A stretch of 64,000 nucleotides of DNA from a virus, in the IMG/VR virus record IMGVR_UViG_2773857937_000001, positions 2,960-66,959 of that record. One strand, written 5' to 3'. The notes below the pieces were generated by a model. It searched no databases. It was not told the origin of the DNA and saw only the letters and a program-made list of their open reading frames with translations. Shown here one piece after another: positions 6,557-53,879 of the stretch (the stretch's first letter is position 1; each line of letters begins with the position of its first letter). The position numbers and the translations under genes are program-made.

Positions 6557-7162
6557 TTATCCGTTCTGCACTTCGCGGATACGTTTAATCACGACTTCCC
6601 GAAGTTCGCTTAACGCGTTTGCTTCATTACCCAGCTTAGAGATAGACATCTCAAGTGCATTGCTATACCAGGCCAGTTGAGGCAAGTTCATGTGATTATG
6701 GTTGAGGGTAGGGGCAACCTCTACAATCTCGTTTTGTTCCTGTGCCAGCGAGTACGTATTCATTTCTTCCATTGTGGCGAACTCACCTACAATGACCTGC
6801 TGGTGGTCCGGACGTTGTGGCTGTCGGATGAGGACAAACGGTGGTTCTGTCGAGTACAGGAATATAGGTTTGGCGCGTGTTTTTACCCATTTAGCTTGTT
6901 TCTTTTCTGCCAGTTCACAGGCTTCATCATACGTGTCAGCTACACCCAGGAAAGAAGAGCGATCCCATGCCCCGCCATTGAGACAGCGAACCATAATTTT
7001 TCCGTCCGGTTGAGTAAGCCCATACGGATGGTCCCACCAGGCGTCGAGCTGGCTCTTAGAACGTTTGTCGTTTGGTGTAACGTCAAAATTGGCAGGTAGT
7101 TTAGGGTCCAGTGGAATACAGTTAGGCATAAATATCCTTTTTCCCGAAAGTGTTAGGTTCAC
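6557..7162 (-). CDS. hypothetical protein (201 aa)
   Basis: A long minus-strand ORF that converges on the upstream operon. It has an ATG with an AAAGGA-like RBS. Confidence 0.5.
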   Translation of the reverse strand: MNLTLSGKRIFMPNCIPLDPKLPANFDVTPNDKRSKSQLDAWWDHPYGLTQPDGKIMVRCLNGGAWDRSSFLGVADTYDEACELAEKKQAKWVKTRAKPIFLYSTEPPFVLIRQPQRPDHQQVIVGEFATMEEMNTYSLAQEQNEIVEVAPTLNHNHMNLPQLAWYSNALEMSISKLGNEANALSELREVVIKRIREVQNG

Positions 7163-7218
7163 AGAATACCCTGAAAAGGCTTTTTGATAACGTGAGAGTC
7201 AGAACAGAATAGAATCAT

Positions 7219-7256
7219 TTTGTTTGTATTGACAAACAAAAAACAAACTATTATAT
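7219..7256 (+). promoter_or_regulatory. sigma70-type promoter (TTGACA-16-TTATAT) overlapped by inverted repeat TTTGTTTGT/ACAAACAAA (operator-like)
   Basis: Read directly in the intergenic region between divergent genes. Confidence 0.45.
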
Positions 7257-7317
7257 TGCCCACATGGTGCTAAAACAGTGCCATCGCCCCGGCGCACCGG
7301 GCAACAGGAATAAAATA

Positions 7318-7689
7318 ATGAACAAATTACAAACAATCTCCGCCGATGACCTCTACTACAACACCGAATGGAATCCCGTTCAAAACATTGATGTAAAAAT
7401 TTGGGATGATCGTAACCAGGATTGCTATGGCACTGCCGATTTAACCTCAAAAGACGGCAAGACCTCCATTACGTTCCCATGGAAAATTAACTACACCTCC
7501 ATGGTATGCGGCGATGACGATATGCTGGAAATCTCCATTGTCGGCACACCTGAACTCAATTTGCCAGCCCAGGCTGAAACCTCATTACCTCTGTTAGAGG
7601 TTATGGAAGAACTGGACATGATTATTGGTATCAGCGCGCAAATCCGTAACCACTGGATCCACAACACGCCTCCAATTTTAGAGCAGTAG
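7318..7689 (+). CDS. hypothetical protein (123 aa)
   Basis: Start chosen at ATG 7318 (MNKLQTI) after AGGAATAAAATA. Confidence 0.45.
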   Translation: MNKLQTISADDLYYNTEWNPVQNIDVKIWDDRNQDCYGTADLTSKDGKTSITFPWKINYTSMVCGDDDMLEISIVGTPELNLPAQAETSLPLLEVMEELDMIIGISAQIRNHWIHNTPPILEQ

Positions 7690-7698
7690 GGATAGTTT

Positions 7699-7941
7699 AT
7701 GTCCGAAAAACCACGCGATCCGCGCAGTAAAAACCCTCTTAAAGAAGCCGTCGCAGCGACGGCTCATATACAGATGCGCGTAACCCCCGATCGTAAAAAA
7801 CGTTACGTCGCCCAGGCAAGGGCCGAGGGCATGAAGCTAACCGACTGGATCCAGAGCCATATGGATAACGTTTGTAATGAAGCTGGCCAGCCTGACACCA
7901 CTATGTACAAAGAGTACGGAGAGAGTCATGGAAAAGAATGA
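7699..7941 (+). CDS. small ribbon-helix-helix-like DNA-binding protein (80 aa)
   Basis: IQMRVTPDRKKRYVAQARAEGMKLTDWI resembles RHH (CopG/Arc) strand-helix-helix. Confidence 0.35.
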   Translation: MSEKPRDPRSKNPLKEAVAATAHIQMRVTPDRKKRYVAQARAEGMKLTDWIQSHMDNVCNEAGQPDTTMYKEYGESHGKE

Positions 7942-8617
7942 TCAGATAAATCAGGATGAAGTAAAAAGCGTAGCCCGTGCCGCACTGGATTACATTGATG
8001 CGCTTCCGAAGGAAGTTGTGGCGGCGCTGCCAGCAATGCCTGGTTTTGATCGAGATTGGGCTGAAAATGTGCTGGCTGATGTAACAAGCCCAACGGCCTT
8101 AATCCCGAACCATATGTTTTTCGACAATGACGATGAGCCGTATACAGTGCTACGTACTATCAAAGGCCTTCTGGAAATGCAGGGCTTTATCGTTAAGGAA
8201 GATCCTGAGCGCATGTTTGCGCCTGGTGCGCATGGCAATCAGGAGGCGCAGGCCGCTGCTACCTGTACCGCGTATTTTGCTGACGTACCGCGTGATGTGC
8301 TGGAGAAGGTGATCCCCACTGATAACCGTTTTAACATCGATATGTCAGATGTGCTGAAAGGTATTGGCATTGACTTAAAAGATGAGAAATTATGGCAGCT
8401 TTCCGACTCCATGACCAATACCGTCAATGAGCTGGCTAATTATCTTATAAGTGATGGCTGGACGCCTCACGAAATTACCTTTGATGGTCGCTATCGTTTC
8501 TCCAAGCAGGTCGGCGGTGAAATGCAATACAGGGATATAATTTCCCGCGTTGAAGGTAATGGCCCCACATTGAGAGCTAATGTGTGGGATGAAGCTGTCC
8601 AGGTAGAAGGGAAATAG
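7928..8617 (+). CDS. hypothetical acidic protein (229 aa)
   Basis: Start moved to ATG 7928 (MEKNDQ), which has a GGAGAG RBS and an ATG..TGA overlap with the upstream gene. Confidence 0.45.
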   Translation: MEKNDQINQDEVKSVARAALDYIDALPKEVVAALPAMPGFDRDWAENVLADVTSPTALIPNHMFFDNDDEPYTVLRTIKGLLEMQGFIVKEDPERMFAPGAHGNQEAQAAATCTAYFADVPRDVLEKVIPTDNRFNIDMSDVLKGIGIDLKDEKLWQLSDSMTNTVNELANYLISDGWTPHEITFDGRYRFSKQVGGEMQYRDIISRVEGNGPTLRANVWDEAVQVEGK

Positions 8618-8619
8618 CG

Positions 8620-8931
8620 ATGAGCAAAACAGTATTTTTGGTGGAGGTAGAACCTTTCAAGGTCTGCGGCCCTGAAACGGAAGTAGGTAAGTTTGTCTTT
8701 GAGCGCGATCTGGTGGAGGAAACGCCAACGCACTACGTTGTAACGAGTCTGGCGCGTTCTGAGGAGGTTGTGAAGTTTTCCCGCCGTGAGTGCGTAGCAT
8801 TTGATACTCGTGATGAGGCGTTGCTACACCTTGAGCGCATTGTGCTTAATAAAATGCAGGGGCTGGAAGACGAGCTGGGGAAATGGCAGCACTTCATTGA
8901 CTCTGTTGATGATGAACTCCGGAAATCGTAA
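8620..8931 (+). CDS. hypothetical protein (103 aa)
   Basis: ORF 3 nt after the upstream stop. Confidence 0.45.
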   Translation: MSKTVFLVEVEPFKVCGPETEVGKFVFERDLVEETPTHYVVTSLARSEEVVKFSRRECVAFDTRDEALLHLERIVLNKMQGLEDELGKWQHFIDSVDDELRKS

Positions 8932-8941
8932 GTAGGACAAA

Positions 8942-9985
8942 ATGAAAGCCGTCATCACTCCCTTTGTCCAGAAAGAGTTAGGTCTTGCCACATTCAAGAT
9001 AGATGATGATGTAGCGCGGCTGATAAGTTCTGGCCGTAAATTCATTATGGAACCTGTCGCACGTGAGCTGGTGGAGCATACAGAAGACGGGTTAATCCAT
9101 ACCGAGCAGTCAATGGCCACTAACGAAGCACTGCGACCTTTTTTCACTAGCCCTGACGTTTTCCGCCGCTTAGGTGGTCTTGATTCGCTGGTGGCATATC
9201 TGCGTACGCATGTTTCAAGTTGCCAGACTGCCGCTCCTGGTTGGTGTGACAACAAGCTAACCTATACAGAGCGTAATGATAACGCGGTAGTCTTATGCTG
9301 GCATCACGACAACCACTATATGATGCGTGGCTTTACCGAACTCGCTCCAACTCTATACCGTAACCGTGTGGACTGGATACTTGAAACCGCGCGAACCGAG
9401 ATGGGACTCCCGTCTGGCCGTGACCTTAGCATTCAGGAGCTTTGCTGGTGGGCGTTCATGCGCAACATGATTGATCAGGTGCCGGAGGAGATTTGCCGCA
9501 TCGCTATCAATAAACTGAAGGAAAAGCAGGATACATCGGGAACGACCAAGGAAGCTGATATCAAGCCATATGATGACCGTGCTATTGCATACGTCAGACA
9601 GATGGAAGAAAAGGCGGATCCTATGCGCGCGAGGGTATGTCCGGTAACAGTTGAGCCAGACCCCGGCATGGCATATTTCAAAAGACCGAAGCTACAGCCA
9701 TTAAAACTGCCTAATTATCTCTCATTTGTTGCATCCAGGCCGTGCTGTGGGTGCGGAGCATCCGGGGAGAATGCCAACATATCTCCCTATCTGGTACTCA
9801 ATAAGCGGTTATGCGCACACGACACATACGCAATTCCACTATGCCTAGCATGCCAAAAGGAAATAAGGCGTGATCGGAGCGGATGGGAGAATAAGCACGG
9901 AAAATTGGCTGTACACCAGCGTGTATTTTTTGATTACGCCCAGGGAATTGGCGCTATCACAAGTCATGAGTCAGCTAATAACTAA
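8942..9985 (+). CDS. hypothetical protein (347 aa) with C-terminal Cys cluster CCGCG...CAH...CLAC
   Basis: ORF with a probable zinc-binding C-terminus. It sits at the position of the pap/pmg genes upstream of lpa in P1. Confidence 0.5.
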
Positions 9986-15056: not shown

Positions 15057-15073
15057 TAATTTATTAGAACAAT
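15057..15073 (-). promoter_or_regulatory. C1 operator (AATTTTATTAGAACAAT, reverse orientation)
   Basis: 15 of 17 match to the consensus. Confidence 0.6.
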
Positions 15074-15140
15074 TGTCAATCAAAGGCAACCGCTTAAGAG
15101 CATGTTTCTGATTCAAAGCACAGAATTAGCCCTTTTATTT

Positions 15141-15157
15141 ATTGCTCTAATAATTTT
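15141..15157 (+). promoter_or_regulatory. C1 operator (ATTGCTCTAATAATTTT)
   Basis: 16 of 17 match to the consensus. Confidence 0.7.
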
Positions 15158-49457: not shown

Positions 49458-49967
49458 ATGGGACATAGAAACACAAGAGGGAACAAAAAATTCCTGAAGG
49501 CGCGCTACACCGCAAACGTAGCAAAAGGGGAAGCATTAGTCTCTTCCGAATTTCAACTTACGTTCCGTGGATTTGAAAATTTAAGTGTTCTTGTGCGCAC
49601 CGCTCAGATTCCGGAGATGACTCGCGAGGATGTTGAGGACTACGGCCCCAATGGCGTGAAATACAACCAGCATGGCCCGATCCGTAATTCCGGTGAATTG
49701 CAGGTACAGTGTGTAGAAACGATTGAAGGCGATATCCTGAAGTTCATCAAAGACAGAATCGCTGCAAAGGATTATGTAGACATCGAGATGGCTGCTACTC
49801 CTGAATCTAAATCGGTAGGAACTGAAGCAAAAACTACCGCCGCTACGACTATCGAAATGCTGGATTGTAAAATTTACAGCGATGCAATCGACATGAGCAC
49901 TGAAGATGTCACCGCTGCGGTCCGTCCGCCTTTGCGTATCGTATATAACTGGATCGATTGGGATTGA
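49458..49967 (+). CDS. putative structural protein (169 aa)
   Basis: Start moved to ATG 49458 (MGHRNTRG), which has a GAGGG RBS. Confidence 0.4.
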   Translation: MGHRNTRGNKKFLKARYTANVAKGEALVSSEFQLTFRGFENLSVLVRTAQIPEMTREDVEDYGPNGVKYNQHGPIRNSGELQVQCVETIEGDILKFIKDRIAAKDYVDIEMAATPESKSVGTEAKTTAATTIEMLDCKIYSDAIDMSTEDVTAAVRPPLRIVYNWIDWD

Positions 49968-49983
49968 TGGATGTAGTTACAAG

Positions 49984-50006
49984 AAAGGCTCCCAATGGGA
50001 GCCTTT
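49984..50006. terminator. bidirectional terminator hairpin AAAGGCTCCC-AAT-GGGAGCCTTT between convergent genes
   Basis: A perfect 10-bp stem read directly. Confidence 0.6.
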
Positions 50007-50024
50007 AACGACAATATAAAAAGG

Positions 50025-50486
50025 TTATTTTTTGGACTCTTTCAAAAGATCTGACCAATCACGAGGGGGTTTACCTTTTTTGAGCATTTTCTCGAAAACT
50101 TTGTAAGCATCACTTTTGCTACCATATGTTCGAAGGGTATCGCTATCGTTCATCCAGGCCAGGATAATTATTTTATTTTCCGTACTGTAACGAAAAAACA
50201 ATCGGTATCTGCCATTACCAAACTTAGCCCTGGACCAATCCTTGTTGTCGTTACCGAGAGTTGTCCCTTGTCTATATGCAGGTGAGGTTGGGTCTACAGT
50301 AATTCCCGTTTCAATCACTTTGTGAATGACGGCAAGAAGTTTTGTTTGTGCCTTCTTCTGATATCCGACTGGATCTTTTTCCTTTAAGGCCTCAACCTCA
50401 TTCACTAATGCGTCATAGACATCCTTGAAACACGGATGAACATAAATTCTCCAGCCATTAATATTTTCTGGTAATCCGCTATTCAT
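50025..50486 (-). CDS. yhaV: YhaV toxin (ribosome-dependent mRNA interferase)
   Basis: Strong similarity to recalled E. coli YhaV (NGW.LY.HPCF...YDALV.EVE.LK.KDP..Y..KA.TKLLAV.HKVIE..ITV.P.SPA.R.G..LG...KDWSR.KFG.GRYRLFFRYS...K.IIL.WMND..TLRTYG.K.DAY.VF.KML). Confidence 0.8.
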   Translation of the reverse strand: MNSGLPENINGWRIYVHPCFKDVYDALVNEVEALKEKDPVGYQKKAQTKLLAVIHKVIETGITVDPTSPAYRQGTTLGNDNKDWSRAKFGNGRYRLFFRYSTENKIIILAWMNDSDTLRTYGSKSDAYKVFEKMLKKGKPPRDWSDLLKESKK

Positions 50487-50821
50487 TAGTCCTCGTCGCA
50501 GATATCTTCATCAATGTTAACGTCCATGTTAGCAACTAACTCACGACCTCGTGACATATCAAAAGGTTGGATATTCTGCGGAGAATTTTTGATATCAGCA
50601 GCTAAAAATTGTAGGAATGCGTTCATAACATCATCCTCTTGTTTTGCTTCTTGACGGCTCAGTAGCACTTTCCCGCCTGGTAATATTTCATATTTAAGAT
50701 GATCTTTGCCCGGTTGAATGTTCAATGCTTCACGTACAGAAGCCGGTATTGTCGTCTGGCTACGGCTAGTAACCTTAGAATCGACAGTCAGGGCTGTATC
50801 GAGACGATCGAAAGCGTACAT
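50486..50821 (-). CDS. prlF: PrlF (SohA) antitoxin
   Basis: Similarity to recalled PrlF (ESK.TSRSQTT.PA.VREAL...PG.D.L.Y.......V..SR.E.......VM.AFL.FLA.DI...PQNI.P). Its stop overlaps the yhaV start. Confidence 0.8.
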   Translation of the reverse strand: MYAFDRLDTALTVDSKVTSRSQTTIPASVREALNIQPGKDHLKYEILPGGKVLLSRQEAKQEDDVMNAFLQFLAADIKNSPQNIQPFDMSRGRELVANMDVNIDEDICDED

Positions 50822-50881
50822 AATTTCACCTTTTAGTAGATCTAATTAGCCTCTGATAGAAAATATACTCTATCAAAAGCA

Positions 50882-50899
50882 GTAATGCAAATGCATTAC
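50882..50899. promoter_or_regulatory. palindrome GTAATGCA-AA-TGCATTAC upstream of prlF (candidate PrlF-YhaV autoregulatory operator)
   Basis: Read directly. Confidence 0.4.
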
Positions 50900-50922
50900 C
50901 GTGGGCGTCAGGTGTTAATGAA

Positions 50923-50940
50923 CCCGGCAAAACTGCCGGG
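50923..50940 (-). terminator. hairpin CCCGGCAGTTTTGCCGGG immediately downstream of ant (minus sense)
   Basis: Read directly. The trailing U-tract is weak. Confidence 0.45.
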
Positions 50941-50952
50941 TGTAGGAAGTTT

Positions 50953-51969
50953 TCAGCTTCTGGCGATAGGTTTTAATAATCCCGCATCAAGTAACTTTTT
51001 CGTTAGCCATTGCTGGCCCTTGCCAGTGATATGTGGCGTCAGACGAATTTTATATCCTTCTTCACCTTCCAAAACGACTTCCTTGACACTGAAGAACCCT
51101 TGGTTGATGTACCGTTGTAGAGGTACATTTTTGCGTGATCCGTAGGCAATCAAAATGTTGTTCTCCCGCAACCAGGCAAATAAGGTGTTTGGCTTCATGC
51201 TGATTGCCTTTGCGTAATTGCTGATTAGTATCCCGTTGGCGGCCGCGACCCGATCGGCAAAATCCACCTTTGGCGCGGCGCTCTGCAATTGCTCTTCCAG
51301 ATGTTGTTTTTGCTCTGCCAGTTCGGCGGCCAGACGTAATGCTTCCGGGAGAGATTGAGGGATAGCCGGGGTAGGGGATGCTTGCTCCCGCTGCTGCAAC
51401 TCCTCCAGTTTATCAATGAGCGATCGACGTACGGCTTTTGATTCGCGCGCGGCTACACGTAAAGCCTGTTTGTGCGACATTACAATAACGGTTTGGTTAG
51501 CCCCTCCTTTTACCTGATCCATGGGGGTTACGAAAATTTCGTAACCCTCACCATCTAACTCATCTCTTATGCGGGCAATAAAATCATTATTACGAACTGG
51601 TTTTTCAGCACATAACTTACGAGCATCATTAACCATTTTCAGCAACTGCTGGCTATCAATGTCCCCTTGATACATTACTGGTGAAATTACTTTCGGCACG
51701 GTTGGTTGTTCTTCTGTTTGCATTTTTGCCTCCTTGCGTTTCTCTGCCGCAACTTCCGCATAAGGGATTCGACCTTGTTCAACTAGGTATTCACGTACAT
51801 CCGTTAAAAGAATGCGCTTTAAAGCGTTTTTATCTTTCCGGGCATAAAGTCGTTTTGTAACCATCAGATAGTTGACGACTACGCTGGGGATTTCTTTCGT
51901 CGCTATACAACAAGTGTGTTGCTCAATAGCTTCAATCATTTCGTCGCGTGTGATGAGGGAGGTCTTCAT
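50953..51969 (-). CDS. ant: antirepressor Ant (C-terminal KilA-C/ANT domain)
   Basis: It is the last gene of the operator-c4-icd-ant arrangement. The C-terminal region (..NTLFAWLREN.ILIAYG...NVPLQRYINQGFF) resembles the KilAC domain of phage antirepressors. Confidence 0.6.
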   Translation of the reverse strand: MKTSLITRDEMIEAIEQHTCCIATKEIPSVVVNYLMVTKRLYARKDKNALKRILLTDVREYLVEQGRIPYAEVAAEKRKEAKMQTEEQPTVPKVISPVMYQGDIDSQQLLKMVNDARKLCAEKPVRNNDFIARIRDELDGEGYEIFVTPMDQVKGGANQTVIVMSHKQALRVAARESKAVRRSLIDKLEELQQREQASPTPAIPQSLPEALRLAAELAEQKQHLEEQLQSAAPKVDFADRVAAANGILISNYAKAISMKPNTLFAWLRENNILIAYGSRKNVPLQRYINQGFFSVKEVVLEGEEGYKIRLTPHITGKGQQWLTKKLLDAGLLKPIARS

Positions 51970-52181
51970 AAAACCCCCTTTGCGTTGCAGGGGAGGGACC
52001 AGTAATTCAGGCTGTTACGGGCTTCATTAGAGAAACGGGCGGTAAAAATGCACGGAGCATCCGGCAAAAGAGAGCGGGCTTCGGCTTCAGTGGTTGCGAT
52101 GACGCAGTGATAATGACGTTTCTGGCATGAGTAAAACCGCCAGATGAATTCATATTGAATCGGGGTAGGGGTAGTAGCCAT
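51966..52181 (-). CDS. icd: Icd-like small protein (71 aa) overlapping ant start
   Basis: A strong RBS AAGGAGG. Its size and its overlap with ant are as in P1 icd. Confidence 0.45.
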   Translation of the reverse strand: MATTPTPIQYEFIWRFYSCQKRHYHCVIATTEAEARSLLPDAPCIFTARFSNEARNSLNYWSLPCNAKGVL

Positions 52182-52339
52182 AATGGCTGCCTCCTTGAGT
52201 GATTTAAACCATCACCACCGAAGACGCCAATCTTATTGGTGGTGAGACGTACAGGGTTGGCGTAACCGGTCACTCAAGAACCCGGCGCATCTTTCGATGC
52301 CCCTGCACGCCCCACCATAATTTGGATAAAGCAGTGCTT

Positions 52340-52369
52340 TACACACAAAAAAAACCGCGTAGCGCGGTT
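52340..52369 (-). terminator. intrinsic terminator (AACCGCGCTACGCGGTT + U8 on minus strand) between c4-like RNA and icd leader
   Basis: Read directly. Confidence 0.6.
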
Positions 52370-52450
52370 GTGCGCTTGAGTAATATCCGGGACGCCAATC
52401 CCGGTTGCAGATTTTGCTGCAACGAGATAACCCTACATCACCAAGCGTTA
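52370..52450 (-). ncRNA. c4: c4-like antisense repressor RNA of immI
   Basis: It lies between the operators and the terminator. The hairpin CCGGG-ACGCCAAT-CCCGG presents GAUUGGCGU in a loop, and a near-complement ACGCCAACC and a second GACGCCAATC loop lie in the icd leader (52213-52268). Confidence 0.35.
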
Positions 52451-52493
52451 ATCGTCAATATTATTGAATGTAGCTGAAAATTCTTAAAAATAC

Positions 52494-52510
52494 AATATTA
52501 TTAGAGCAAT
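52494..52510 (-). promoter_or_regulatory. C1 operator (ATTGCTCTAATAATATT on minus strand), Op51-like
   Basis: 15 of 17 match. Confidence 0.65.
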
Positions 52511-52551
52511 TCGAGGGGCTGGCGGGTTTTTAAAATCGTCTTACATGACGC

Positions 52552-52568
52552 TTTTCTATTAGAGCAAT
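52552..52568 (-). promoter_or_regulatory. second C1 operator-like site (core ATTAGAGCAAT)
   Basis: Core intact, 12 of 17 overall. Confidence 0.5.
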
Positions 52569-52643
52569 ATGTATAAAAAACCACTATTTTTTTGAGGTTT
52601 GTGCGGCTATTATTCGTTTGATGAATATAAAATGGACAAGGAT

Positions 52644-53384
52644 ATGAAAAAGTTAGCATTAGTATTGTGCTTCATGGCAGGGACAGCGAATGCCGCGTCA
52701 AGCCTCAATCAAATTTGCACCGACTACGTAAAATACCTTGGGCACGCATATGGGTTTGCGACCAGTGAAGATGAATCTATGCGTAAGTTGCTACTGGCTG
52801 ATATGGAGCGTTTAAGTCTCTCCGAGGCGATGGTTCAAAAGGAGATGTACAAGGCAACAACGGATGATGCCGCTAAGATGTACTATTCCATGTTCCTTAA
52901 TCCTGATCTGAATGAAACTAACCGAGGCGCATTTGCTCAGATGGTTTCATATTGCGAAGCTGGGCCAGATGTGATGATACCAAGCTGGGCCGTATTGGTG
53001 GCAAAGGGTAAGGTCAGGAAGGAAGATGCTGGATCATCCTTCATGGAAACAATTAATAGCGATGCGTTTAAAAATGCTCCTGGTATGAGGCATCAGATAT
53101 CAAGAAACACACCGGAGTTTAAATCTTGTGTCGCGAAAAAGGTTGCAGAGGAAAAACGCGCTAATCCAAGTGTCCATCAAAGTGCGCTTGAGGTTGCTGC
53201 CGAAGCTCAATGCCTTAATGGAAATAGTTCCGTAAATACTCCACCAGCGTCTTCAGGTGAGCCGTCATTAAAAATGAAGGGCTGCATATACGAAAAATTA
53301 AATGTTATGAAAAAAGATAGCCCAAATGTTCCTGAAGCTAATTTAATGGCCACGGCAAAAAGCCTCTGTGAAGATGGATATTAA
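52644..53384 (+). CDS. secreted (periplasmic) protein, sim-position
   Basis: Signal peptide MKKLALVLCFMAGTANA. Start moved to ATG 52644, which has an AAGGAT RBS. Confidence 0.5.
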   Translation: MKKLALVLCFMAGTANAASSLNQICTDYVKYLGHAYGFATSEDESMRKLLLADMERLSLSEAMVQKEMYKATTDDAAKMYYSMFLNPDLNETNRGAFAQMVSYCEAGPDVMIPSWAVLVAKGKVRKEDAGSSFMETINSDAFKNAPGMRHQISRNTPEFKSCVAKKVAEEKRANPSVHQSALEVAAEAQCLNGNSSVNTPPASSGEPSLKMKGCIYEKLNVMKKDSPNVPEANLMATAKSLCEDGY

Positions 53385-53405: not shown

Positions 53406-53879
53406 ATGAAAAATAAATTTGTTTTTTTTATTATCCCACTGCTTTTTTGCTCCTCTGCCATGGCAAATGTAAGCAAATGGTCAACTGCTGAAGAAAAAGG
53501 TGTAAGGGTATATTCAGTAGACAGCAAGAATAAATATACGCTTCGATTTAGTTGTGATGTTGGGGCTAGTAATACGTCTTCTGATTCAGTAGGAACCAGG
53601 ATGTTAGAGCTTTCTCAGGACTTCCCTGGTGGTAAATCCTATAGTGACACGAATGGGATTTTGTTAAAGGTTGGAGAAGATGAATACCCTATGGGGCAGA
53701 TAGGCTCCACTGTTGGCGATAGCTGGTGGTATGGATTTTGGAGTGATGTTCCAGACTCACAATCTAAGGCTGTCGATGCTTATGTTGACGGAAAAAAAAT
53801 AGCTTCGTTTACCATGCGTAAAGCCGCAGAACTTTACAACTCAGCACCTGAAGACGGATGTCTGAAACGCGCGAAGTAA
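53406..53879 (+). CDS. secreted protein (157 aa)
   Basis: Signal peptide MKNKFVFFIIPLLFCSSAMA. Confidence 0.5.
   Translation: MKNKFVFFIIPLLFCSSAMANVSKWSTAEEKGVRVYSVDSKNKYTLRFSCDVGASNTSSDSVGTRMLELSQDFPGGKSYSDTNGILLKVGEDEYPMGQIGSTVGDSWWYGFWSDVPDSQSKAVDAYVDGKKIASFTMRKAAELYNSAPEDGCLKRAK

Follow-up and report, generated by a model that had tools for sequence, protein, structure and literature searches.

A prlF-yhaV toxin-antitoxin (TA) pair has been identified directly downstream of the antirepressor gene ant in the immI operon of what appears to be a P1-related plasmid prophage, at the place where phage P1 carries kilA and repL. The stretch of DNA analysed, referred to here as the window, comprises 64 kb (positions 2,960 to 66,959) of the record IMGVR_UViG_2773857937_000001; since these ~64 kb are part of an element of roughly 90 kb, absence from the window does not amount to absence from the element. 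The evidence shows that the pair is an optional cassette in a swap-prone slot. It is considered likely that it serves the plasmid prophage as an autoregulated type II TA module, either for addiction or as a selfish cassette, and that the lytic replicon has not been displaced by it.

The two genes of the pair are transcribed in the same direction as ant, with the antitoxin gene first.

50486-50821, minus strand: prlF, antitoxin of 111 aa with an AbrB/SpoVT-type N-terminus (Pfam, NCBIfam and comparison with Escherichia coli K-12).
50025-50486, minus strand: yhaV, toxin of 153 aa belonging to the RelE-superfamily ribosome-dependent RNase family (Pfam and comparison with K-12).

Both products pass the cut-offs of curated families, with YhaV scoring 187.3 bits against Pfam Toxin_YhaV (PF11663, cut-off 35) over profile positions 1-137 of 138, and PrlF scoring 113.9 bits against Pfam PrlF_antitoxin (PF15937, cut-off 32) and 132.7 bits against the NCBIfam equivalog NF007429 (cut-off 125), together with an AbrB-domain match that falls below threshold. 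The pair is like prlF(sohA)-yhaV of E. coli K-12 in having the same two Pfam families, the same NCBIfam PrlF equivalog and the same gene order, with protein identities of 57% (PrlF) and 68% (YhaV). The prlF stop codon and the yhaV start codon share one base (TAATG), a geometry that is identical in K-12, and the two genes are thus predicted to be translationally coupled. The K-12 genes differ in lying at the chromosomal garD-agaR locus, as opposed to an optional 943-bp cassette on a plasmid prophage, and in coding DNA that is only ~64% identical to the window. An identical YhaV protein is encoded on contigs of ~90 kb (NCBI record name Citrobacter braakii), relatives at 84-86% identity lie on contigs of ~94 kb, the named one being from Salmonella, and the nearest chromosomal YhaV proteins, from Yersinia and Erwinia, share ~75% identity. 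In related plasmids the prlF-yhaV pair is already annotated by RefSeq. A search of solved structures with YhaV returned only spurious matches to pentatricopeptide-repeat proteins. Among 10 small accessory open reading frames (ORFs) of the window, no other TA module was recognised by Pfam, in a check that was not exhaustive.

Upstream of prlF lies a predicted control region that belongs to the cassette itself.

50882-50899, minus strand: operator palindrome GTAATGCA-TT-TGCATTAC, a perfect inverted repeat overlapping the -35 hexamer.
50862-50891, minus strand: candidate TA promoter of the sigma-70 type, TTTGCA-18-TATATT (consensus scan).
50922-50941, minus strand: hairpin ACCCGGCA-GUUU-UGCCGGGU, directly after the ant stop codon and within the cassette, 8 bp, GC-rich and without a U-tract.

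The predicted PrlF-YhaV operator is spelled GTAATGCAttTGCATTAC (GTAATGCATTTGCATTAC), and 17 nt of it match the palindrome of the K-12 prlF promoter (...AATAATGCATTTGCATTACC...TATAAT) exactly. These 17 nt, TAATGCATTTGCATTAC, with the embedded TTTGCA -35 hexamer, are identical in the window and in K-12 despite the ~64% identity of the coding DNA, and the palindrome is unchanged in three aligned cassette-bearing relatives. The K-12 promoter, TTTGCA-17-TATAAT, occupies the same position relative to the palindrome, whereas in the window the spacer is 18 nt and the -10 hexamer is TATATT. It has been reported that the prlF promoter palindrome is the binding site of a PrlF2-YhaV4 complex and that YhaV is a ribosome-dependent mRNA endonuclease (reviewed in PMC7781912), and the operator proposed for the window rests on this review together with the sequence identity to K-12. 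On these grounds, that is, the K-12-identical operator and the published account of PrlF-YhaV binding and YhaV activity, we conclude that the cassette probably constitutes an autonomous, autorepressed and translationally coupled TA operon. A second inverted repeat, TGATAGA..TCTATCA, which brackets the -10 hexamer and sets the window apart from K-12 prlF-yhaV, was ruled out as a conserved operator, as it is degenerate in the cassette of the Salmonella Wandsworth type and not conserved in relatives.

A first-pass annotation of this DNA had regarded the hairpin after ant (-16.3 kcal/mol, z -3.2) as a terminator lying 13 bp from the TA promoter. The distance is 22 nt to the palindrome and 30 nt to the -35 hexamer, and the hairpin lacks a U-tract and received no call in the terminator scan. 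A second hairpin between ant and prlF (-11.5 kcal/mol), followed by CUUUUGAU, was scored as terminator-like, but the strong U-tract of a canonical terminator is missing from both.

The boundaries of the cassette were established by comparison with close relatives, in which the same slot between ant and bplB is found in different states.

50007-50949, minus strand: TA cassette of 943 bp, defined as an indel (the empty-slot relatives L118, L119 and L122 align up to 50006 and resume at 50950).
49984-50006, both strands: bidirectional terminator hairpin AAAGGCUCCCA-N-UGGGAGCCUUU, 11 bp, -16 to -17 kcal/mol on each strand.
49458-49967, plus strand: bplB, convergent morphogenetic gene that bounds the slot, 85% identity to P1 BplB.
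50953-51969, minus strand: ant, antirepressor of 338 aa (Pfam ANT; 61% identity to P1 Ant1 over its full length, residues 1-345).

Slot states were read from contigs that encode an identical BplB protein and whose backbones are 92-98% nucleotide-identical to the window. The slot holds prlF-yhaV in five of these loci (L117, L121, L123, L124 and L126), is empty in three (L118, L119 and L122), where 3 nt separate the stop codon of ant from the bplB hairpin, and in two (L120 and L125) holds higB-higA, followed by a C-terminal remnant of PrlF and, on the opposite strand, four small ORFs. Among all places reported, prlF-yhaV was counted roughly 7 times, the empty slot 9 times and higBA twice. The 943 bp contain the hairpin after ant, the promoter and operator, prlF and yhaV, all in the orientation of ant, and the terminator hairpin that bplB shares with yhaV in the window is shared by bplB and ant in the empty-slot relatives. 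The PrlF remnant beside higBA is recognised by Pfam (E 4e-11) and shares 88% nucleotide identity with prlF of the window. The reciprocal arrangement is seen in more distant Salmonella plasmids, where the Wandsworth type carries prlF-yhaV plus a HigA remnant and the Newport type carries higBA plus a PrlF remnant. A scan of genome contigs with BplB gave 5 loci, two of which were uninformative (a Kluyvera contig disrupted by an insertion sequence (IS) and a 1-kb fragment). Because relatives with an identical BplB have the slot empty or filled by higBA, the TA pair is optional and not a substitute for an essential replicon.

Transposition of the cassette was ruled out, as the junctions have neither terminal repeats nor target duplications; homologous recombination within the flanking genes bplB and ant, which are conserved, would explain the exchange better. 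In L120, the four small ORFs that take the place of yhaV (6742-8015, plus strand; 84, 171, 88 and 56 aa) have no Pfam match.

The surroundings of the slot are exactly syntenic with P1. In the window the order is repA-parAB-23-22-21-pmgG-bplB, slot, ant-icd-c4, sim, and in the P1 record it is repA-parA-parB-23-22-21-pmgG-bplB-pmgF, rlfB-rlfA-repL-kilA-ant-icd-c4, sim, such that ant-prlF-yhaV-bplB stands where P1 has ant-kilA-repL-rlfA-rlfB-pmgF-bplB. In all of the 60-odd loci of P1 proper, kilA-repL follows ant. The first-pass annotation was therefore right in reading a complete PrlF/YhaV pair with its own palindromic operator at the positional equivalent of P1 kilA-repL.

A near-source contig, AASRTQ020000020.1 of GCA_012540605.2 (90,363 bp), is 99.8-99.98% identical to the window; the sole substantial difference is a replaced stretch at 7939-8886, beyond which coordinates shift by ~370 nt. 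The closest database relatives are contigs and plasmids of 86-96 kb from Salmonella and Citrobacter, the nearest PLSDB records being Salmonella plasmids of 86-94 kb with ~78-81% nucleotide identity, and P1 and P7 match the window only in pacAB-c1, at ~72% identity. From these comparisons the window is best read as part of a P1-related plasmid prophage of a lineage separate from both P1 and D6. A search for C1 operators with the P1 consensus ATTGCTCTAATAAATTT, allowing up to 3 mismatches, found 10 operator-like sites in the whole window against 0.3 expected by chance, which is consistent with a dispersed C1 regulon of the P1 style. Among the ten, listed under positions 9987-38754, are two paired sites at 34237-34281, and others lie close to the c1 gene, at 15057-15157.

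Several searches were made for the genes that follow ant in P1. In the window, tblastn with P1 RepL, KilA, RlfA, RlfB and PmgF found only the KilAC domain that KilA and Ant have in common, phmmer with the RepL proteins of P1, D6 and the present lineage found nothing, and a hidden Markov model (HMM) of the RepL family (P1, D6 and lineage RepL) run against all six-frame ORFs gave a best E of 0.25, in agreement with the earlier statement that no RepL-like gene is visible in the 64 kb. The C1 operator search gave no site at 50000-51000 and hence no equivalent of Op53 after ant. A P1-type RepL was likewise missing from NZ_CP146848, a complete relative of 92.7 kb. In this plasmid, a winged-helix protein of 335 aa and, after it, a protein with a ProQ/FinO domain are encoded just past the portal and protease genes, in a region outside the part homologous to the window, and in every relative examined a winged-helix gene of the RepL family (324-341 aa) lies between pro and a ProQ-like gene. 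The protein matches PHROG 2418, which contains P1 RepL (E 1.2e-9), as well as several replication-initiator PHROGs, and its alignment with the P1 and D6 RepL proteins by hhalign has a probability of 95.5% (E 1.6e-8). Three members of the RepL-like cluster, P0016, P0064 and P0066, for which the precomputed Pfam annotation PF26868 (Phage_P1_RepL) is unmarked, come from lineages only ~75% identical. Exact-protein matches covered the near-source contig as far as position 73424, and for the part beyond it the relatives that carry P0031, with 99.0-99.6% identity in the adjoining darB segment, served as the proxy. The search for repL and kilA homologues over the window and its relatives thus succeeded for the former, as the RepL-family gene beside pro, and found no kilA anywhere.

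In the closest relatives, L113 and L115, which are 99.6% identical to AASRTQ020000020.1 in the adjoining darB segment, the site ATTGCTCTAATAAATTA lies ~130 nt upstream of the RepL-like gene with 1 mismatch to the C1 operator consensus, beside a promoter-like TTGCGA-17-TTTAAT. The site in the Wandsworth plasmid has 3 mismatches, and no C1 site within 3 mismatches was found upstream of the RepL-like gene in L106 and L109. One contig of 91,332 bp (L115 and L126) holds both the RepL-like gene and prlF-yhaV after ant. A similar placement is known from phage D6, where repL also adjoins pro (pro/prt) and does not follow ant. D6 differs in that its bplB adjoins pmgC without an immI island and its icd-ant module lies beside its repL, and D6 RepL is clearly P1-like (28% identity, full length), whereas the protein of the present lineage matches the N-terminal domain only. 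As the RepL-family gene is present next to pro in relatives, including a contig with prlF-yhaV, the lineage keeps a predicted RepL-family initiator elsewhere, and the TA cassette does not appear to have displaced the lytic replicon.

Two further features accompany the RepL-like gene. Between its C1 operator/promoter and its start codon lies AAAAAAAACCCCGGTGCTAGCCGGGG (L113 and L115, 9858-10001; L005, 930-1076). Its opposite strand reads as a strong intrinsic terminator, with 8 U in succession, which may end an antisense transcript comparable to the P53as RNA of P1. In every relative examined, the ProQ/FinO-domain gene directly follows the RepL-like gene on its 3' side, in many cases with an overlap (L005, 2081-2611; L105, 10980-11492; L115, 11026-11553), and the coupling of an RNA chaperone to a lytic replication initiator is an unusual arrangement.

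The immI operon upstream of the cassette is composed of the following features in addition to ant.

52552-52568, minus strand: distal C1 operator-like site ATTGCTCTAATAGAAAA, with a perfect 12-nt core and a divergent tail (direct reading; its 4 mismatches to the P1 consensus place it outside the search at up to 3).
52494-52510, minus strand: C1 operator-like site ATTGCTCTAATAATATT upstream of the operon, 2 mismatches (consensus search).
52460-52487, minus strand: candidate immI promoter, sigma-70-like, TTAAGA-16-AATAAT (consensus scan only).
52348-52436, minus strand: leader of immI, comprising the a1/b1 target sites and a stem-loop terminator of the isrK type at 52353-52369 with a U-run (Rfam, terminator scan).
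52235-52322, minus strand: C4 antisense RNA (Rfam RF01695, 80.9 bits, full-length, above the gathering score).
51966-52181, minus strand: icd, 71 aa (NCBIfam phage_ICD_like; 74% identity to P1 Icd).

The region of two C1 operator-like sites, C4 RNA, icd and ant, which the first-pass annotation had called intact, is borne out, its RNA and gene features by curated models, including the Rfam c4-a1b1 leader (52384-52436, 52.7 bits, above the gathering score). The genes icd and ant overlap by 4 nt, icd ending at 51966 and ant starting at 51969. P1 immI is alike in its C1 operators, a1/b1 leader, C4 RNA, icd, ant and hairpin after ant, and in its bplB and sim flanks; it differs in having kilA, repL, rlfA, rlfB, pmgF and Op53 after ant, where the TA cassette is found here. 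The leader resembles isrK, the Hfq-binding small RNA (sRNA) of Gifsy-1 (Rfam, 52348-52423 with terminator, 76.3 bits), and has a canonical terminator with 8 U between the a1/b1 sites and the C4 RNA; as for IsrK, it may yield a short sRNA besides the read-through transcript of the operon. The C4/isrK-type region (window 52208-52419) is found at ~81% identity beside ash-family genes on plasmids of 44-49 kb from E. coli, Salmonella and Klebsiella, which suggests that C4-type antisense-RNA immunity modules reach well beyond P1-type elements.

Variation around immI is not limited to the slot. A Rha-family regulator gene lies between icd and ant in the Wandsworth plasmid (L001, 11164-11877) and in higBA-type contigs (L120, 10008-10706), and is present neither in the window nor in P1. 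The empty-slot relative L122 has an IS605-family TnpB gene (8215-9345) between the immI leader and the sim-like genes. Beside immI, the window encodes a sim-like protein of 261 aa (52599-53384, plus strand) with a SimA-like N-terminus, which has only ~42 residues (67% identity) in common with P1 SimA and lacks a SimB or SimC counterpart, followed by YfjT-family genes (window 53406-53879, plus strand), of which there are one to two among close relatives. In L037 (IMGVR_UViG_3300048927_000308, 8001-8770), c4-icd-ant is missing and the sim-like gene lies 136 nt past bplB, and in a Pantoea contig (L020, 8001-9200) and in D6 (L007, 47701-48798) bplB abuts pmgC with no immI island at that place. Since some P1 relatives are without c4-icd-ant at the site, immI together with the slot seems to behave like an island that can be inserted where two morphogenetic operons meet.

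Plasmid prophages are classic carriers of TA modules. The cassette, which lies between the ant stop codon and the bidirectional bplB terminator and carries its own sigma-70 promoter, would be held in check as in K-12, with the PrlF-YhaV complex binding the K-12-identical palindrome over the -35 hexamer and repressing the operon, and with PrlF keeping YhaV, a ribosome-dependent mRNA endonuclease, inactive. Cells that lose the plasmid prophage would then undergo growth arrest. Such addiction is the most likely role of the pair, as it is plasmid-borne, belongs to a lineage without phd-doc and has a counterpart beside parM in another phage-plasmid. This counterpart is a second PrlF-YhaV with 58% identity in a 90.3-kb contig of Enterobacter hormaechei (GCA_048768655.1; L129, 5656-6513), where it adjoins parM/stbA and the pacAB-c1 region of another P1/D6-type phage-plasmid, and it appears to be an independent acquisition at a different site. 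P1 subgroup 1 has phd-doc as part of its conserved gene content (PMC10879196), whereas the module was found neither in the window nor in the complete relative of 92.7 kb nor in the neighbouring loci, and prlF-yhaV may stand in for it. P1 phd-doc is alike in being an autoregulated type II TA module borne by a plasmid prophage, with the antitoxin first and with post-segregational killing expected; it differs in its unrelated protein families and in its location. The cassette would also persist as selfish DNA at a hot spot of recombination, in which one TA cassette is overwritten by the next, as indicated by the reciprocal remnants of prlF-yhaV and higBA. The gene of the predicted RepL-family initiator, flanked by pro and the ProQ-like gene and preceded by a C1 operator, would meanwhile lie outside the window.

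Several points weigh against this interpretation. A chromosomal prlF-yhaV with the same operator is present in 5152 of 5426 complete E. coli genomes, so that the plasmid toxin could be neutralised by PrlF made from the chromosome and addiction could be weakened. Near-identical relatives live with an empty slot, which makes the cassette dispensable and its stabilising role putative. As regards the lytic replicon, homology of the RepL-like protein to P1 RepL is limited to the N-terminal winged-helix domain (81 columns), the PF26868 annotation is marked weak for P0031, the closest cluster, and the presence of the gene in the window's own element is suggested by way of relatives that are 99.6% identical in the adjoining segment.

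Among the alternatives, it has been considered that the cassette is an anti-phage module acting by abortive infection or exclusion against other phages or competing P1-type plasmids, which is rather unlikely. Accessory hot spots between convergent terminators often carry defence genes, some TA modules of the RelE superfamily act in defence (PMC11980606), and the slot adjoins the sim (superimmunity-like) genes; however, no PADLOC model matches YhaV, PrlF or the HigB/HigA that occupy the slot in relatives, a literature search found no paper linking PrlF-YhaV to phage-plasmids, and the independent PrlF-YhaV of the related phage-plasmid sits beside partition genes, the classic place of a stability module.

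It is likewise improbable that the TA pair is wired into immI, such that read-through past ant upon the lifting of C4/C1 control changes TA dosage and YhaV plays a part in host shut-off like that of KilA or Icd in P1. The cassette is oriented as ant and begins 3 nt past its stop codon, and the hairpin after ant, the promoter of the cassette and the operon behind it follow one another in the same way as the ant hairpin, P53 and kilA-repL in P1. Since the first hairpin has no U-tract and received no terminator call, some immI read-through into the pair is possible. Yet two stable hairpins (-16.3 and -11.5 kcal/mol) separate ant from prlF, the second being terminator-like, the cassette has its own predicted autoregulated promoter of a design identical to the chromosomal one, and no C1 operator lies near it. 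Read-through would also raise antitoxin and toxin together, and close relatives with an empty slot or an unrelated TA module indicate that immI can do without the cassette.

In a bolder version, to which we give little credence, the ant-bplB site would be a dedicated TA exchange point of competing P1-type prophages, a view prompted by the reciprocal prlF-yhaV and higBA remnants. Given a leaky hairpin after ant, the cassette and the antirepressor gene would share a transcript, and loss of C4/C1 control would retune the dosage of toxin to antitoxin, making YhaV a Kil-type shut-off function or a punisher of immunity collapse.

The proposal of the first-pass annotation that the TA pair replaced kilA-repL, which would leave an element that has no dedicated lytic origin and either is defective or replicates lytically from its plasmid replicon, is very unlikely, for although the window encodes no RepL or KilA N-terminal domain and P1-type RepL is also absent from the complete 92.7-kb relative, it is already contradicted by relatives with an empty or higBA-filled slot and by the RepL-family gene beside pro throughout the lineage (with a C1 operator in the closest relatives, and including the contig that bears prlF-yhaV), an arrangement that D6 shows to be normal among P1 relatives, and it is the annotation's other suggestion, a relocated lytic origin, that fits.

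PrlF-YhaV is a well-known family, to which the present pair adds a member, and no paper was found on the ant-bplB slot or on PrlF-YhaV in P1-type elements. What has been documented here is the polymorphism between empty, prlF-yhaV and higBA states with reciprocal remnants, and a diverged RepL beside pro in a P1-related lineage; a higBA TA module has been described as belonging to the gene set of D6-like elements (PMC6799933). A gene pair at the position of P1 kilA-repL need not have replaced it. Among P1 relatives, repL has at least two locations, downstream of ant in P1 and beside pro in D6 and in this lineage. This bears on surveys that rely on P1 repL as a marker, such as a screen of 47,784 UK Salmonella isolates in which no phage-plasmids were reported in serovar Newport (PMC11165635). 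Newport plasmids of this lineage are present in PLSDB, and surveys of this kind are likely to miss the lineage because the similarity of its RepL-like protein to P1 RepL is confined to a diverged N-terminal domain. The three slot states on nearly identical backbones provide a natural comparison set for what a TA module contributes to a plasmid prophage, and the operator held in common with the chromosomal prlF-yhaV of E. coli may allow cross-regulation or anti-addiction between the host and prophage copies.

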